Assembly (NCBI GenBank): GCA_963555825.3
Contig: CAUVXB020000002.1
Span: 2,240,001-2,304,000, forward strand
Reading direction: 5' to 3'
Length of the DNA stretch: 64,000 bases
Source: Alphaproteobacteria bacterium
GTDB lineage: Bacteria; Pseudomonadota; Alphaproteobacteria; JAAXGF01
This document shows positions 26,783-42,624 of this stretch, piece after piece; the first letter of the stretch is position 1; each line of letters opens with the position of its first letter. The translations under genes were made by a program, and so were the position numbers. The notes under the pieces are model-generated. The model was not told the DNA's origin. It saw only the letters and a list, made by a program, of their open reading frames with translations, and searched no databases.

Positions 26783-28412
26783 ATGCATGACTATCGAAAA
26801 CAAGACACAAATCACGACAAGGCCATGACACAGGAAAGCGCTTTCAAATCCTGGCTCGAGCAAGGTGGGGCTCAGACCGTCGCCGGGCGGAACACCCGTG
26901 CTTCAGCCATCCGGACGATCGAACGGAAACTGGAAGAGCTTGGAATGCCGCTCCGGGATGTGGACGGAGCTTGGGAAGCGGACCGTTTCGAGTCGCTGCG
27001 CGAACGGCTACGCCGGATGCGGGAAGATGCCCGCGATGGGGGACAGGACTACCGGATTCTGATGCCGGACTCCGAGAACCCCCACAAGCGCCTTTCCAGC
27101 TGGCGCAGCTGGCTGGGGCAATATGGCCGGTTCCTCGCCGGCTAGCCTCCGGGATCAGCCAAAGATGCCGACCGCATCCGGCAATATGTCCTCGAACACT
27201 ATATCAAGCCTGCCCGGGAGGAACGTCGCGGACAGGCAGAAGTTCTCGTGCGCGACGTGAACGAGGCGCTCGGTCTGAACGAGGCATGGCCGAACATCTG
27301 TCAGGCTCTTGCCGGGCACAAGTTCCAGGAGCTCGCACAGATTCCACCGCCCGAGCGGATCGGCGCCGATCAAAGCTCGGCCACAGTGTTTCGGTTCGAT
27401 CTGAGCAATCATCGCGTCGACAGGACGGCTCTCGACCAGTTGCGCGATCGGTTCGTCGCTGCTTGTCCTGATTTCAGGAGCTTCGTCGATCCCGGAACAG
27501 GATGGGCCAGGGACGAGAAGGCCTACAAGGTGGCGGCTTCCGAACGGGTGCGGGCCGCGCTTGAAGAAGGTGGAGACGACGAGGCCCTTGGAAAGGCCGT
27601 CTTCGAGGTACTCAAGACTGCAGCAAGGGACGGCCCCTTCGTACGATGGCAGACCGAGGACTCGATCGCCAAGCAGTCTCCCCAGCTGCTCGGTGAGTTC
27701 CATGCAGTCATCGGGCGACTGATCCGGTACGGCCAAGCCGCGGAAGAAGTCCTTTCGCAAGCGTTCGATACGCTCGACGCCCTGAAGGAGCGAGGCGCCG
27801 CATCGCTGACCTATGGCGAGCGACTCAACATCCTGTTTTCTGCGCTATCCATGGTGCGCCCCAGCGAGGCAGGTCCCCTCAAGATCACGCGGTTCAACGA
27901 GGCCTGGGACAAGCTCACGGGAGAGAAGCTCTTCGTCGAAGCCACGGCCAACATGGCATCGGATTATCGCCGCTTCGCGGCCGTCTTCTCCGAGCTCTTC
28001 GAAATCATGCGGGACGACTGGCAGTGGCAGCCACAGGACTGGCTGGACATACAGGGATTCCTCTGGATCGCCCTCGACAAGACCGCCAGCGCACCGCCTG
28101 AGACAGACGCTTCGCCCGACACCAGCGAAAGCCGAGAGAGGCCCAATGCCGATTTCCCCCATGAACCTCATCCTTTACGGACCGCCCGGCACAGGTAAGA
28201 CGTTTTCCACTGCCGCGGAGGCCGTCAGGCTTTGTGGTGAGCCTGTGCCCAAGGATGCGAGCCCCTGATGCAGGCCTATCAACAGCTCCTCGCGGCGGGA
28301 CGTATCGAGTTCGTCACCTTTCACCAGTCGTTGTCCTACGAGGATTTCGTGGAAGGCCGACAGCCGATGACCGGGTCGGACGAAGACGACGACTCCTCCT
28401 CCGCTGGCTTCC
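26783..28412 (+). pseudogene. mcrB: McrB-like AAA+ restriction GTPase pseudogene
   Basis: One frame across an internal TAG at 27143; frameshifted [13 protein letters not shown] and IEFVTFHQSLSYEDFVEG motifs; cut by IS3 at 28413. Confidence 0.85.
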
Positions 28413-28473
28413 TGGACCCTGCTGACGAAAGTGGAGACGTCCTGCGATAGGATTTTGATCGCAGGAGGTGCAA

Positions 28474-28770
28474 ATGTCGAAGCAGAATGGGAACAAGGGC
28501 CGGCGGTTTGATCGGGCCTTCAAGGAAGAAGCCGTCCGTCTTTTACAGACGAGCGGGCGCAGGCAGCGGCAGATAGCAGGAGATCTTGGGATCAGCGTCA
28601 GCGCGCTCGGCCGCTGGGTCACAGAATTGCGTGAGGAGGATTTGCTTTCCGGTCCGCATGAGGATGCAGCGAAGGAGATTACCCGCCGACGCCGAGAGCG
28701 TGATCTGGCCCGTCAGGAACGTGATCTGCTAAAAAAAGCGCTGGCCTTCTTCGCCAGGGAAAGTCGATGA
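28474..28770 (+). CDS. IS3 transposase OrfA
   Basis: FDRAFKEEAVRL...ERDLLKKALAFF. Confidence 0.88.
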   Translation: MSKQNGNKGRRFDRAFKEEAVRLLQTSGRRQRQIAGDLGISVSALGRWVTELREEDLLSGPHEDAAKEITRRRRERDLARQERDLLKKALAFFARESR

Positions 28771-29354
28771 GGTTCCGGTTCATCGACGCGGAGAGGGCCG
28801 GGTTGGCGATGCCGATATTCCGCCTGTGCAGACTGCTGCAGGTCAGCGTCTCAGGCTTCTACGCTTGGCGCAATCGCGGCCCAAGCCAGCGACAGCTCGA
28901 TGACATGGTTCTACTCGCCCATGTCCGGGCAGCCTTTCGGCGCAGCCGCGAGAGCTACGGTGCAGAGCGGGTCCATCACGAGCTTGCCGAGAATGGGATC
29001 GAGGTTGGACGCCATAGGGTGGCTCGGCTGATGCGGGGAAATGGGTTGTCTCCAAAACGGAAACAGAAGTTCAAAAAGACGACGGACAGCCAGCACAACA
29101 AGGCCGTCGCATCGAACCTTCTCGACCAGAACTTCTCCGCCGAGGCACCCAACGAGAAATGGGCTGCCGACATCAGCTATATCTGGACGGCACAGGGCTG
29201 GCGGTACCTGGCCGTCATGCTCGACCTCTACTCCCGGCGCGTCATCGGCTGGGCCGTGGGCGCTCGCATGACCAGCGACCTGCCGCTCAGGGCGCTTAAC
29301 CGTGCTATCGGGCTGCGCCAACCTGGCGCCGGTGTGATCCACCATAGCGATAGT

Positions 29355-29625
29355 GAGTATCTGCGGGCCGGTTCCCTCGGAGTGACCTGACCCGCACAGC
29401 GATAGACGCATCTAGACTGATAGGGCCGGCCGCCCTTGGGTGGCTTGACCCACACTCAGATCGACCGAGATGTCATTCCCCGGACATGTCGGCCACCCGG
29501 GGGCAACCGGTTGAGGTTCCGACCTCGACCGACATCGTGACCTGATGAGAGCCCGGCCTTGGGCGCCCCGTCACTGTCGTGTCCGACATCGGCTGAGTTC
29601 GGAGCCAACCCCTCCACCCATCATA
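29355..29625 (+). ncRNA. Putative bridge RNA of the IS110 element
   Basis: Segments match the right junction (29476-29485), the element right end (29545-29552) and the element left end (29571-29579); RNA ends are approximate. Confidence 0.7.
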
Positions 29626-29640
29626 GACCAGGGGGCGGAC

Positions 29641-30696
29641 ATGGCGACTGCAACAGCCGACAACATCCAGATCATCGGTGGCGTCGACACCCACCAGGAC
29701 CTGCACACCGCCGCCGTCGTGAGCCACGACGGAACGGTGCTTGGTACCGAATCGTTCTCCACCACCCGAGCCGGCTACCGGGCGATGCTTCGCTGGTTCC
29801 GCTCTCATGGCGAGCTGCTTCGTGTAGGAGTGGAATCCACCGGTACCTACGGAGCCGGCATCACCCGGCACCTGGCACTCTCGGGTATCCCCGTGCTCGA
29901 GGTGACCGGGCCGGACCCAGCCAGCCGAAGAGCCAAGGGCAAGGACGACGCCCTGGATGCGATCTCCGCGGCCGAGGCGGCGCGCACAAGACGCCGGGTC
30001 CAGGTGGCCAAAGACCGTTCCGGCACCGTGGAAGCCCTGCGGGTGCTGCGAACAACGCGAAAGACGGCAATCAAGTGCCGCCGCGCGGCCCTGCAGCAAC
30101 TCCACAACACCATCGTTGCCGCACCGGAGGAAGTGCGTGACCAGGTCCGCAACCTCACCCGCATGCAGCGCCTGCGTACCTGTGCGGCCTGGAGGCCGGA
30201 CACGGTCGGCTATCGAGACCCGGTGGTCGCGACCAAGCTCTCCCTGAAGTCCCTCGCCCGCAGAATCCTCGACATCAACGACGAGATCGCTGAACTCGAC
30301 CGGTTCATCGTCCCCTTGGTCGAGGAGCTCGCCCCCAGTCTGCTTGAGCTCGAAGGCGTGGGCACCGAGAACGCAGGCGCAGTAATGGTCGCCGTTGGGG
30401 ATAACCCGGATCGGCTCCGCTCCGAGGCGAGCTTCGCCATGATGTGCGGCGTCTGCCCGATCCCCGCATCGAGTGGGAAGACGCAACGCCACCGTCTCAA
30501 CCGCGGAGGCAACCGCCAAGCCAACTCCGCCCTGCACATGGTCGTCGTGTGCCGAATGCGAACCGACGAGCGGACCCGAGCCTATGTCGCTCGCAGGACC
30601 CTGGAGGGGCTGTCCAAACGCGAGATCATGCGCTGCCTGAAGCGTTACGTGGCCCGCGAGATCTACCGCGTACTCACCGCCCCATCGAGTGCTTGA
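29641..30696 (+). CDS. IS110-family DEDD recombinase
   Basis: GGVDTH, GVESTG, KDDALDA, PIPASSGK, RLNRGGNRQAN. Confidence 0.93.
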   Translation: MATATADNIQIIGGVDTHQDLHTAAVVSHDGTVLGTESFSTTRAGYRAMLRWFRSHGELLRVGVESTGTYGAGITRHLALSGIPVLEVTGPDPASRRAKGKDDALDAISAAEAARTRRRVQVAKDRSGTVEALRVLRTTRKTAIKCRRAALQQLHNTIVAAPEEVRDQVRNLTRMQRLRTCAAWRPDTVGYRDPVVATKLSLKSLARRILDINDEIAELDRFIVPLVEELAPSLLELEGVGTENAGAVMVAVGDNPDRLRSEASFAMMCGVCPIPASSGKTQRHRLNRGGNRQANSALHMVVVCRMRTDERTRAYVARRTLEGLSKREIMRCLKRYVAREIYRVLTAPSSA

Positions 30697-31029
30697 CAAA
30701 CATGAGAGCGTCCGGGGAAGCCAGTACTGCTCAGACGCATACCAGGCGCGCCTCGGTGAACTCGGTTTCCTCGCCTCAATGAGCGGTAAGGGAAATTGCT
30801 ATGATAACGCCGTCGTCGAGACCTTCTTCAAAACCATCAAGTCAGAACTGATCTGGAGGACTGTGTTCATGTCAAGAAGCCAAGCTGAAACTGCCATAGA
30901 CGGATACATCGATGGGTTCTATAATCCAGTCCGTCGGCACTCGACGCTGGACTTCACAAGCCCCGTCAAATTCGAGGCAGAAGCAATGCAAACGGTGTAG
31001 GGCGCCTCCACTTTTCCTGGATGGGTCCA

Positions 31030-31851
31030 GTTTATGAGTTTCTGGAAGCGGAAGGCTTCAAGTACGCCATCCGGCTTCCGGCCAACAAGGTGCTGCACGA
31101 CAGCATCGCGCACCTGCTCAAGCGCTCCGTCGGTCGGCCGCCGAAGGAAGTTCGTCGGTATTACGCGAACTTCAGCTATCGGGCCGGTAGCTGGACGGAG
31201 CCCCGCCGGGTCGTCGCCAAGGTGGAGTGGCACTCAGGGGAACTGTATCCCCGCGTCGGCTTCATCGTCACCAACCTGAGCCGTCCTGCCGAGCGGGTTG
31301 TTGCGTTCTACAATCAGCGCGGCACTGCCGAGCAATGGATCAAGGAAGGCAAGAACGCCATCAAGTGGACGCGGCTGTCATGCCGTTCGTTACGCAACAA
31401 TGCCGTCCGGCTCCAGCTGCATGCACTCGCCTATAACCTCGGCAACTTCATGCGTACCCTGGCGTTGCCCGATGCCGTGGAGCAATGGTCGCTGACGACG
31501 CTGAGGGAGAAGCTGGTCAAGATCGGTGCGAAAGTTGTCAGCCATGGCCGGTACGTCACATTTCAATTGGCCGAGGTTGCAGTCACCAGAAGCTTGTTCC
31601 AGAAAATCTTGAGCCTGATTGATGATCTACGACGAAGACCCGCTCCGGCGTAGGCCGAGGGAATCGACGGCAAGGAGATTGCGACACGAGAGGTGTGTCT
31701 GGATGGCAAGAGAAACGACCAAATGGCCTTCCACGCGCTGGCCGATTACCAAAATCATGTCATCGGATGGCTGCAATGGGAACAGAGTTCCCTTGGAGAT
31801 GGGGCCGTGGTACGATTTCCGCGAATTTGGATGTCATCTGGGGAATGTCGG
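31030..31851 (+). mobile_element. IS1380 3' fragment with right end
   Basis: FYNQRGTAEQWIKEGK; tail closely similar to the IS1380 at 32594; ends GGGAATGTCGG. Confidence 0.85.
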
Positions 31852-31994
31852 TCAAGATCGCCGGCACGCTGGTGCATGAATTGATCCACGCTTGCGGGAG
31901 ATTCAATCACGGCGCCGAGTTTGCCGCGGACCGCCTGCCCGCGTGGGCTCGGCGGATCATGGTCAAGCTAGGCCTGCCCTGTACCCACAAGTGA
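31852..31994 (+). pseudogene. C-terminal fragment of an HExxH (SprT-like) metalloprotein
   Basis: IAGTLVHELIHACGRFNHGAEF. Confidence 0.5.
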
Positions 31995-33506
31995 CGCTGG
32001 ACAAACGATTCGAAGATGTCGAGTTTCAAAGGCAATGACGGCAATTTGATGCAGCACTGGGTATTGTGCGAACTATTGGCGGTCGCTCGGAAATACACAA
32101 CCCGCTTGACGTTCATTGACGCCCACTCTATGGCGCCTACCGCCATTCAAAGGACGGAGAAGAAGGCGAATCGTAGACGTAACTTCGATTCAGTATTGGA
32201 AAATTTCCCCGGGCAGGGATCGTCGTACGAACAAGCGTGGCAATCTCTATCGCCCGAACGAGGAACTTATCCGAATTGCGCCAACTTCGTGACGCATATC
32301 TGGAGTCCACCGAGCGTTTGCTCGTTGCTGCTATGCGAGCGTGATGAACAAACAGTGTCCTTGCTGCGTTCGTGGGCTGTCAAGCACAGCGATATCGAAA
32401 TTGAAATCGCGGCCGGAGACTGGCGCACACGGTTCAACCGTGCACTCCCGAAGCAGGAGGGGTTGGTGTTCATCTCATTCGATCCGTACATGTTCAATCG
32501 GCATCGACGTAAGGAGAATCCAGGAAACATGTACCCCGCCGACCTTGACCGGTTGGTCGATGCGACAGGTTCTTTTCCGGAGAATGTTCTAATCCGACAT
32601 TCCCCATATACCATCCAAATTCGTGGAAATCGTACCACTTTCCCACCGCCAAGGGAACTGTATCCCCTATGCAGCCATCCGATGGCATGATTTTGGTAAT
32701 CGGCCCGCGCTTGGAAGGCCACTCGGTCATTTTTCTCGCCATCCAGACACACCTCTCCTGTCGCTTTCTCCTCGCCGTCGATTCCCTCGGCCTACGCCGG
32801 AGCGGGTCTTCGTCGCAGATCATCAATCAAGCTCAGGATTTTCCGGAACAGGTCCCTCGGCACCGCCACCTCAGCCAATTGGAACGTAACGTAGCGGCCA
32901 TGTCGGACAACCTTGGCCCCGATCTTCACCAGCTTGTCGCGCAACGTCGTCATCGACCAGTGCTCCACCTCCTTCGGCAAAGCCAGTGTCCTCATGAAGT
33001 TGCCCAGATTGTAGGCCAGGGCGTGAAGCTGGAGCCGAACGGCATTGTTGCGGAACTTGCGACATGACAGACGGGTCCAGTTGATGGCGTTCTTGCCTTC
33101 CTTGATGTGCTGCTCCGCCGTGCCACGGTGATTATAGAACGCCACCACCCGCTTGGTAGGGCGCGACAGATTAGTGACGATGAAACCGACGCGAGGAACC
33201 AGCTCGCCGGGGTGCCACTCCACTTTGGCCACGACACGGCGCTTCTTGTTCCACGATCCGGCCTGATAGCTGAAGCTGGCGTGGAAACGGCGAACATGGT
33301 CGGGCGGGCGACCGACAGGTCGCGTAAGCAGATGGGCAATGTTCCGCTGGAGAATCGCGTTCGCTTTGAGGCGGATGACGTAGAGTAATCCCTCGGCTTC
33401 GAGATATTCGTATATCTCCGGTGAGGCGAAGGCGGCATCGCCACGAAAATACAGCCGCACCTTCCTTTCCTTATAGCGCATCACCACCGGCTCCAGAACA
33501 TTCCGC

Positions 33507-41043: not shown

Positions 41044-42624
41044 TGTCAACGACTTTGAGACAGTGACGATTACGATTTACTGAGCAGTTTCTCCTGTTGT
41101 GGGTGTCACAGGTGGGTTGATCCAGACGGCTTGGGGAAGGGGATCCGGTTGTGGGATCCCTCGAACGAAGCGTTCGGGATGACGGGTCCAGGCGGCTTGA
41201 AGGGTCCGCCCGCGCTGCTCCAGCACGCTCTGGGTTCGATTGTGATGCACGTCGTCCGGGGTGAGCATGGCGATCCCGCCATGGCGATGTTCGGTGTTGT
41301 ACCAAGGGAAGAACGTTCGGCAGAAGGCGATCGCGGCGGTGATGTCGTGGAAGCGGCCAGGGAAGCCGGGGTGGTACTTCAGGGTCTTGAACTGCGCCTC
41401 GGAGAAGGGGTTGTCGTCGGACACCTGAGGGCGGCTCAGTGAACGGGTCACGCCGAGGTCGGCGAGCAGTTGTGCGGTGCACTTGCTCGTCATCGGCGCG
41501 CCGCGGTCGGAGTGCAGGGTGAGCACCTGGGGCTGGACGCCCTGTTTATGGCAGGTCTCTTCGATGAGACGACCGGCCAGCGCCGAGTTCTCCCGGTCTG
41601 CGACCATCCAGCCGACCGCGTAGCGGCTGAAGATGTCGAGCACGACGTAGAGGTAGAAGTACGTCCACTTGGTCGGCCCCAACAGCTTGGTGATGTCCCA
41701 GGACCAGGTCTGGTTCGGCGCCGTGGCCACCAGCTCGGGCTTGGTGTACTGGGGATGCTCGCGCTGATTGCGCCGCTCTCGGACCGGCTGATCGGCGGCC
41801 AGGATCCGATACATCGTCCGCTCCGAGCACAGGTAATGGCCTTCGTCGAGCAGCGTCGCCACGACCTCCGCCGGCGCACGGTCGACGAAGCGCGGGCCGG
41901 CGAGCACATCGAGGATCTGCTCGCGCTCGGCTTCACACAGCGCCCGGGCGGGCGTTGGACGGGGCTGCTGGTGCCCGGGAGTTGACCTCTGACGACGGTA
42001 GAAGGTCGCCCGTGACACGCCCAGTGCTTGGCAGGCCGGCGCCACGCCGACCTGCGCCGCAAGCGGTTGGACCGCCATCAAGAGCGCGTTCCGTGTTCGA
42101 GGTTCAATCCCAGCAGCCCGGCAACTTTTCCCTGCACGTCCAGGATCGTGTGCGCGGTGTGCAACTCGTGCTCCAGGCGAGCCACTTGCGCCTCGAGCGC
42201 GCGCACCTTCGCATCCAGCGGGTTGCGTTCGGCCGGTTTCGCGCCGCGCTTCTTCGCGGCCAACTCCCGCAGCGAGCCCTTGCGCCGCGCCTTGCGCCAA
42301 GCCGTCAGATGCGAGCTGTACAACCCCTCGCGGCGAAGCAGGCGGCCCACCTCGCCGGGCTGTGTGCAGCGATCCGCCTCCTCCAGAATCCGCAGCCGAT
42401 ACTCTGCGGTGAACTGGCGCCGCTTCGGCTTGGCCACAACCTCCGGGTCCGGGGTCGGTCTGGCGCGGCCGGCCCTGGGGGCCTCGTCGCTACGCTCCTC
42501 GACCCCAAGGGCCGGAACGGAAACCTCATTCAATGTCATCGAGTCTCTCTCTGCGGTCATCGGTTTTCACCTCCACCGCCCTACAGAAATTCCGAAGGTT
42601 GCTGGTGTCTCAGTGATGTTGGCA
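41044..42624 (-). mobile_element. IS3-family element (orfA 42078-42560, orfB 41077 to about 42078)
   Basis: Ends TGTCAAC..TGAGACA / TGTCTCA..GTTGGCA; WSWDIT, LHSDRG, DNPFSE. Confidence 0.9.

Follow-up and report, generated by a model that had tools for sequence, protein, structure and literature searches.

Two RNA-guided members of the IS110 family of insertion sequences (ISs), IS621 and ISEc21, are the closest described relatives of the element considered here. The target of IS621 is a repetitive extragenic palindromic (REP) sequence. Its bridge RNA has two loops, with the sense guide 5' and the antisense guide 3' (Durrant et al. 2024, PMC11208160), and the main text of a second study describes handshake guides that pair with the non-cognate DNA after strand exchange (Hiraizumi et al. 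2024, PMC11208158). As described by Siddiquee et al. (2024, PMC11187229), ISEc21 has as its target the stretch of codons that surrounds the second D in the DDE motif of IS3, does not duplicate this target, and forms a circle with a promoter at the junction; its short seekRNA carries the bottom-strand match 5' of the top-strand match, and the transposases of its group belong to an intermediate length class of 345-385 amino acids (aa). A further element of this kind lies in a 64 kb stretch of DNA from an alphaproteobacterial genome (contig CAUVXB020000002.1, positions 2,240,001 to 2,304,000; hereafter the window), where it interrupts the transposase gene of an IS3-family element. It is very probably an autonomous IS110-family IS of the ISEc21 kind, guided by RNA into the catalytic codon of IS3/rve transposase genes.

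The element occupies 1361 nucleotides (nt) on the + strand (29352..30712; AGTGAG...GAGAGCGTC) and sits, without a target duplication, between the GAT (Asp) and CGG (Arg) codons of IS3 orfB. The left part of orfB (28767..29351, +) ends in ...HHSD, encoded by cac cat agc gat (29340-29351), and its match to the Pfam rve profile stops at position 73 of 102. The right part (30713..31000, +; rve_2/rve_3 by Pfam, and NCBIfam) resumes at cgg (30713) and starts RGSQY. Because the two pieces match the NCBIfam profile transpos_IS3 contiguously, at positions 90-282 and 283-369, no orfB residues were lost at the break. An uninterrupted IS3 was found in contigs of all four public runs examined: 29351 is joined directly to 30713, skipping the 1361 nt with ends AG..TC, so that the uninterrupted IS3 reads CAT AGC GAT|CGG GGA. 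One run contig of 889 nt spans this empty-site joint with 148 nt on either side.

The transposase encoded by the element is a 351-aa DEDD protein (29641..30696, +) with an N-terminal DEDD_Tnp_IS110 domain (PF01548, 2.6e-25) and a C-terminal Transposase_20 domain (PF02371, 3e-17), and it scores 183.4 bits against a cut-off of 140 with the NCBIfam model NF033542 'IS110 family RNA-guided transposase'. Non-coding sequence amounts to 289 nt 5' of the gene (29352-29640) and only 16 nt 3' of it. As in other IS110-family elements, there are neither terminal inverted repeats nor a target-site duplication. A first-pass annotation, made from the sequence alone, had described an IS110 bridge-RNA element splitting HHSD|RGSQY and had named ISEc21 as a precedent. 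The orfB codons and the contiguous IS3 profile bear out the split, the family matches and a guide geometry like the published one agree with the assignment, and the precedent is correct according to the main text of PMC11187229. The span of 29341-30722 proposed there needed correction: the insertion is real, but 29341 lies in an IS3 His codon and 30722 lies in IS3.

How did the copies in the source genome arise? There are six full copies of the element, with 0-4 differing positions among them, and all six IS3 copies that reach the Asp codon carry it. One possibility is that these copies go back to duplication or transposition of an IS3::IS110 composite, or to recombination between copies, and not to six RNA-guided insertions. 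The 40-nt IS3 left flank is identical in five of the six full copies, rearrangement has affected several right flanks, and the two components are equally near-identical among copies (0-2 differences per 939 nt in the IS3 parts, 0-4 per 1361 nt in the IS110 parts); since the parts are equally similar, repeated targeting is indistinguishable from composite amplification within this genome, which tells against reading the six copies as six guided events. Uninterrupted IS3 does, however, exist in the public runs, and one copy (contig C1, 404209-405569) is an independent off-target insertion into a metallophosphoesterase-like gene, not IS3. That gene is uninterrupted in four related genomes, where it reads ..TTCAGATCGCGGATC.. 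or ..CAGGTCGCGGATC.., and the clean empty site, ..CAGAT|CGCGGATC.., shows that the insert is AGTGAG...GAGAGCGTC without duplication. A search of five related genomes for further copies returned one more IS3-borne copy and no new insertion outside IS3. Composite amplification thus has somewhat less than an even chance of accounting for the copies, and it concerns their history only, leaving the RNA-guided mechanism untouched.

In the mechanism proposed here, the transposase would act with a bridge RNA or seekRNA encoded upstream of its gene. The target loop would read DNA encoding the central catalytic motif of IS3/rve transposases, with a 9-nt left target guide (LTG) that has the sense of (His/Asn)-(Ser/Thr)-Asp codons and would pair with the bottom strand, and after it a right target guide (RTG). 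The donor loop would read the element ends: its left donor guide (LDG) corresponds to right-end positions -11 to -4, and its right donor guide (RDG) is antisense to the first 5 nt. Handshake guides of 3 nt beside the RTG and the RDG would pair with the last three bases of the partner after strand exchange. Recombination would take place exactly between the Asp codon and the next, with no duplication and no visible shared core, and would split and thereby inactivate the IS3 transposase. By analogy, the chemistry is presumably that of IS621 and ISEc21.

The guides were traced in relatives found by a transposase search, which yielded 68 loci among genome contigs and a further 74 among metagenome contigs. 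Scanning the relative loci and the source-genome copies with a profile built on the 5' region then gave 110 matches, and guides and flanks were tabulated from these. The relatives come from metagenome-assembled genomes (MAGs) labelled Alphaproteobacteria, Gammaproteobacteria, Gemmatimonadota (Palauibacter, Longimicrobiales), and Actinomycetota, plus one Xenorhabdus. The 5' region contains the four guides of a bridge RNA or seekRNA together with 3-nt handshake guides, and about 60 homologues, drawn from several phyla, back them with compensatory changes; matches between guides and DNA occur only at fixed places of the region and covary. Covariation with DNA is found for the RDG, the LDG, both handshake guides, and position 6 of the RTG, and the closing stem of the target-binding loop covaries as well.

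On the target side, the RTG, TTCCCCG (29476..29482, +), is antisense to the right target (RT) CGGGGAA (30713-30719), and the adjoining target-loop handshake guide GAC (29483..29485, +) is antisense to the element's final 3 nt, GTC (30710-30712). At RTG position 6 the pairs with RT+2 are C-G in 28 events, U-A in 11, U-G in 7, and C-A in 6; RT+4 is paired in 41/53 events and RT+5 in 49/53. The target-loop handshake is Watson-Crick in 53/53 unique events, as GAC/GTC in 50 and as GAU/ATC in three. Because the handshake guides engage the partner DNA once strands have been exchanged, the RTG with its extension matches the right junction and the RDG with its extension matches the left junction. This places two complementarities listed by the first-pass annotation, both of which were confirmed: TTCCCCGGAC (29476-29485) is the exact reverse complement of GTCCGGGGAA (30710-30719), and TCACTGTCG (29571-29579) pairs with CGATAGTGA (29348-29356) with one G-T. 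The 10-mer of the right junction has only two matches in the window, with 0.25 expected, and 2 of 100 shuffles reach two.

On the donor side, the LDG ATGAGAGC (29545..29552, +) has the same sense as the right end at 30702-30709, so that the repeat at these two places noted in the first-pass annotation is present. Taken alone it is within chance (as a 9-mer with at most one mismatch, 11 matches against 18.9 expected); the repeat carries weight because the LDG covaries in the relatives. It is identical at 8/8 positions in 10 of 11 unique pairs, at this place only, and L088 and ISEc21 have AGAAGGGC at both the LDG and the right end. A contiguous match of the LDG to the last 8 nt of the donor was tried and rejected (0/12). 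The RDG, TCACT (29571..29575, +), is antisense to the first 5 nt, AGTGA, and changes with them: UCACU goes with AGTGA, UUACU with AGTAA, UCCCU with AGGGA, UGACU with AGTCA, and UCACA with TGTGA, with pair counts at alignment columns 4/267 of 51 GC, 6 AU, and 3 CG. In L103, L118, L120, and L125, T at +1 is accompanied by A in the RDG; L063 is an exception to this tracking. The donor-loop handshake guide GTC (29576..29578, +) pairs with the 3 nt that end the left target (GAY), and it covaries: GUC accompanies GAY, and in L093, L119, and L145 GUA accompanies TAY flanks. It is counted as 3 nt because its fourth base, G at 29579, follows left-target position -4 only inconsistently. When 4 nt of left target and 5 nt of left end are combined into a 9-mer and compared in antisense, matches of at least 8/9 occur only at the donor-loop handshake and RDG (16/27 events).

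The closing stem of the target-binding loop has its 5' strand at 29426..29444 (+; inverted repeat I4) in the conformer that uses the second of the two left-guide cassettes described below, and its shared 3' strand GUCGGCCACCCGGGGGCAACCGG at 29488..29510 (+). It is 96.7% paired with 28 compensatory cells, which none of 500 shuffles reach. Several observations weigh against the guide-RNA reading. The insertion events are related to each other and not phylogenetically independent. Pairing with the right target is poor at +3, +6, and +7, and RT+3, a codon third position, is paired in only 15/53 events. Matching of the whole RT 7-mer fails to single out the RTG, as only 4/51 events reach 6/7 there and the background elsewhere is similar, and per-position counts were used instead. 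An Rfam scan of 28000-32000 at E <= 1 returned only a chance lncRNA match outside the element, and the single-sequence minimum free energy (MFE) of the 5' region is not better than that of shuffles (z = -1.66).

Which part of the RNA reads the left half of the target? The left target CATAGCGAT (29343..29351, +) comprises the His-Ser-Asp codons of the interrupted orfB. The first-pass annotation had pointed to CACTCAGAT (29453-29461) and had called the left guide uncertain; the poor fit that it suspected is real, as this 9-mer agrees with the flank at only 5/9 positions, and the uncertainty is resolved by a paralogous cassette whose guide, CACAGCGAT (29395-29403), agrees at 8/9. Cassette A (29368..29410, +) consists of a 5' strand able to pair with the shared 3' strand, UGACCC (29388-29393), the 9-nt guide, and AGAC. 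Its guide LTG-A (29395..29403, +) reads CAC AGC GAT, His-Ser(AGC)-Asp. LTG-B (29453..29461, +), in cassette B, reads CAC TCA GAT, His-Ser(TCA)-Asp, and fits the left flank of the off-target copy on contig C1 at 8/9. The two cassettes are paralogous, with B 58 nt downstream of A, and share the stem 5' strand, UGACCC, 4 nt, a 9-nt guide, and NGAC. The left half of the target loop (58 nt) has probably been tandemly duplicated, so that A and B would serve as alternative left guides on one RNA; this reading is drawn from sequence comparison. The cassettes would compete for one shared 3' strand and one RTG, and for this reason one RNA would offer two alternative left guides, of which A (AGC) and B (TCA) together would cover both serine codon families.

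Among 67 unique events, identity of at least 8/9 to the 9-nt left flank is found only at A (12 events) and B (22); elsewhere there is none, and the antisense control gives one. When wobble (U-G, G-T) is allowed, perfect 9/9 matches also occur only at A (7) and B (19). Variants of A track their own flanks: AACACTGAT or AATACTGAC accompanies IS3s with Asn-Thr-Asp, and CACACGGAT accompanies an identical flank. In genome G041, which has 10 matches, the 5' region is identical in the nine loci compared; four of these nine are insertions at sites other than IS3, three with flanks that fit A (9/9, 9/9, and 8/9) and one with a flank that fits B (9/9). A search of that genome for empty sites of these four insertions found none, and only a repeat upstream of L040 matched. 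Pairing between the 5' strand of A and the shared 3' strand is possible in 90.2% of cells, 27 of the cells being compensatory (0/500 shuffles; slid controls 27-57%). When the window RNA is folded under constraint, the two conformers are close in energy, A at -105.0 kcal/mol and B at -101.6 kcal/mol. One relative, L120 (1118-1480), has three cassettes at 58-nt spacing, with guides AACACTGAT, AACAGCGAT, and AACTCTGAT, followed by a single RTG.

The alternative is that cassette A has no function or a purely structural one, such as that of a 5' stem-loop, and that only B guides, this IS3 having been hit despite its 5/9 left match by virtue of the perfect 10-nt RTG and handshake. ISEc21 works with one cassette, and an RNA of 58 nt is enough there (main text of PMC11187229). 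A single cassette is present in ISEc21, L088, and a few others, A being absent from ISEc21 and L088. In some lineages cassette A is degenerate; in L053, L071, and L124 it does not resemble a codon-type guide. The best window is B in 43/67 events and A in 18/67, 14/67 events fit neither cassette at 8/9 or better even with wobble, and at that threshold with wobble other windows score too, such as position 13 with 10 events. The pairing of A with the shared 3' strand could merely reflect its paralogy to B. Against this stand the 12 events that match A and not B at 8/9 or better, with at least five different A sequences tracking their own flanks, and the three non-IS3 flanks of G041 that match A at 9/9, 9/9, and 8/9 but B at 6/9 although the 5' region is the same in nine loci. 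No other window of the 5' region matches left flanks at 8/9 identity or better, and the UGACC context of A is at least 90% conserved, whereas the spacer that follows it is not. A cassette A without guiding function is the less probable account, at roughly one chance in three, and alternative left guides are preferred. There is also a slight balance in favour of a broader proposal: that a duplicable 58-nt cassette gives rise to alternative conformers, with cassettes that have diverged over Ser AGY/TCN and over His-Ser-Asp/Asn-Thr-Asp, as a natural form of multiplexing against the catalytic codon of rival transposons across phyla.

Is the same codon hit elsewhere? The first-pass annotation had suggested that the RNA is tuned to the HSDRG codons of IS3, and an alignment of homologues with their flanks supports this: most of them interrupt an IS3/rve transposase gene, at that very codon, so that the outcome named there as refuting, homologues mostly outside IS3 orfB, did not arise. 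Homology to orfB that ends at the junction is present in 48 of the 76 unique left flanks, in 38 of them exactly at Asp, with identities to this IS3 from 28 to 100%; 66/76 end in [HN][STAG]D. In 34 of the 63 unique right flanks orfB homology begins at residue 1-2, and 41 conform to [RQNHC]G.[QE][YF]. Ten of the 28 left flanks without orfB homology were sent to Pfam: four have rve domains ending at profile position 73, as here, one matches Phage_integrase weakly (26.5 bits; cut-off 27.1), and five have no family. The insertion point thus recurs across many IS3/rve genes that are unrelated. The rival account that a non-specific IS came to lie inside the IS3 by chance and that the complementarities are coincidental, for which only the frequency of the 8-mer ATGAGAGC in 64 kb and the unexceptional MFE could be cited, is refuted by the shared insertion point in 48-66 of 76 unique flanks across phyla, by compensatory changes in four guide segments, and by the experimental precedent of ISEc21 in the main text of PMC11187229.

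The guides are written in codons, often with U at third positions. U at these positions would pair with bottom-strand A or G, and so one guide tolerates synonymous C/T differences in the target; wobble raises the number of perfect B matches from 6 (our own count of rows) to 19 events. Across the relatives, whose left guides occupy columns 44-56 and 127-137 of alignment A1, CACTCTGAT is the B guide met most often.

Three relatives form a sub-lineage with a different target. L093:2191-2488, L119:163-457, and L145:93-377 have left guides ending in TAT (e.g., TATGCTTAT), handshakes GUA and GAU, and a right end ...GCATC, and they sit after Phe-Tyr-x-Tyr codons and before CGN GG. The flank of L093 is the one with the weak Phage_integrase match, at 26.5 bits below the cut-off of 27.1. 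The sub-lineage thus has the look of a natural switch of target, away from IS3 and towards the gene of a different recombinase. A parallel to these Tyr-type guides and to the Asn-Thr-Asp guides is ISMch6, a relative of ISEc21 compared here by its description in the main text of PMC11187229, in which guide changes track a changed target.

Some flanks resemble the element itself. The right flanks of L034, L042, L048, L049, L102, and the source-genome copy C2:3379891-3381251 are not IS3 and begin AGT like the element start (6/53 unique), and the left flank of L046 and L047, CATGAGAGCG.., resembles the element's own right end. Both look, from the flanking letters, like the outcome of recombination with donor-like half sites, for which a preprint on 'half-match' events (10.64898/2026.08.31.748434) is a point of comparison.

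The crossover itself lies between GAT and CG in the target (or GAC|CA, GAT|AG) and between GTC and AG in the donor (GTC|TG in one subclade), with no dinucleotide shared by the two. The junctions here are GAT|AG on the left and GTC|CG on the right; in relatives the right junction shows CA, AG, or AA and the left one AG or TG. The left junction always has the donor +1/+2 bases, and the right junction mostly has those of the target, in agreement with the lack of a duplication in ISEc21. The junctions by themselves had left room for a 'GT' core or a 'GC/CG' core, both of which were ruled out by the empty sites GAT|CGG and CAGAT|CGCGG. The copy G000:C1:230135 and L033 lie in the same context, the right part of an IS3 with a further insertion after ..GGAAGCCAG, and differ in the first base after the element, A in the former and C in the latter, so the +1 base may be that of the donor or of the target. 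The lack of a shared core dinucleotide, and an LDG that misses the last 3 nt of the donor, mean that the IS621 scheme is not fully transferable, which is a difficulty for the proposed mechanism.

How far, then, do the known systems extend to this element? Like IS621, it has two binding loops, a 9-nt LTG, handshake guides, and a protein with DEDD (RuvC-like) and Tnp domains. IS621 requires a shared CT core covered by every guide, in contrast to the target and donor of this element, which share no dinucleotide; this absence bears on the generality of the IS621 core rule. Other departures from IS621 are an LDG that ends 3 nt short of the end, handshakes of 3 nt, a left half of the target loop that appears duplicated, and a target that is a protein-coding motif of another IS.

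The agreement with ISEc21, a copy of which was fetched as locus L174, is closer. The two transposases are 56% identical (187/335 aa, E = 7e-144), and in both elements a non-coding RNA region precedes the transposase gene, its bottom-strand match being placed 5' of the top-strand one. They also share the absence of a target duplication and the anatomy of the junctions, which in ISEc21 read ..AGCGAC|AGTAAT.. and ..GGGCGTC|CAGGGAAGCCAGTAT. As in the ISEc21 group, the target is the Asp codon of IS3 and the transposase is a related protein of 351 aa. The ends of ISEc21 differ from those found here, with matching changes in the LDG and RDG. It has one left-guide cassette, as opposed to two here and in most of the closer relatives (66-100% transposase identity) and three in L120; instead of the single bottom-strand guide of the ISEc21 group, this element carries two paralogous cassettes, a difference at the level of structure. 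The hosts of ISEc21 are Enterobacteria, whereas those found here are environmental alphaproteobacterial, gammaproteobacterial, Gemmatimonadota, and Actinomycetota MAGs.

Because ISEc21-type IS110 elements are known to home to the IS3 Asp codon, the core finding is already explained; what is new is the duplication of the left-guide cassette, together with the wide distribution. In the main texts of the literature searched, nothing was found that describes a left guide present in duplicate. This habit of transposon acting against transposon is widespread outside Enterobacteria, across alphaproteobacterial, gammaproteobacterial, Gemmatimonadota, and Actinomycetota MAGs, and the same codon is hit in IS3/rve genes that are only 28-49% identical to each other. 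If functional, cassette duplication would be a simple natural design for multi-target bridge RNAs with two or three alternative left guides.

Transcription of the guide RNA may start from a promoter that arises where the ends of the circle meet. Among relatives the right end, CTTGACAAACATGAGAGCGTC, hardly varies; it contains TTGACA (30693..30698, +), the -35 box of the presumed junction promoter. A possible -10 box, GAGTAT (29355..29360, +), was read by eye in the left end, and by the same reading the two would be 17 nt apart after circularization. The arrangement in ISEc21 is identical: TTGACT, 17 nt, AATAAT. No promoter was found on the + strand of the linear form of the element. No circle junction was present among the contigs of the four runs; contigs drop rare forms, so the absence of circles is not shown by this.

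The host element (28413..31029, +), assigned to the IS3 family by Pfam and NCBIfam, has TG...CA ends and imperfect terminal inverted repeats (inverted repeat I1, arms 28412-28443 and 30999-31030); its left end, TGGACCC, is common to three copies with differing upstream flanks. It carries orfA (28468..28770, +; HTH_Tnp_1 by Pfam) upstream of the interrupted orfB. The IS3 is itself nested. Its right end adjoins the C-terminal 200 aa of a DDE_Tnp_1_4 transposase (profile 231-434/435; window 31021-31653) and its left end cuts an unrelated open reading frame (ORF; window 28268-28450), so that the sequences on its two sides do not resemble halves of a single interrupted site.

Two IS3 copies contain a further IS, unrelated to the first, 12 nt downstream of the point where the IS110 element sits (G000:C1:228650-230122, and upstream of G000:C2:3413369). 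This IS measures about 1.47 kb, has terminal inverted repeats GGCGAGTTCAATCGG.. and a 475-aa ORF, and is not an IS110 element; the C-terminal motif of the ORF is, we presume, IS30-like. Elsewhere in the window, an intact 407-aa transposase with HTH_32, rve, and rve_3 domains (41077-42300, - strand) contains an unoccupied site, CAC TCC GAC|CGC GG, at 41501-41514. The site encodes Leu-His-Ser-Asp|Arg-Gly and, counted by eye, matches cassette B at 7/9, or 8/9 with wobble; genes of this type carry relatives of the element in L059 and L132.

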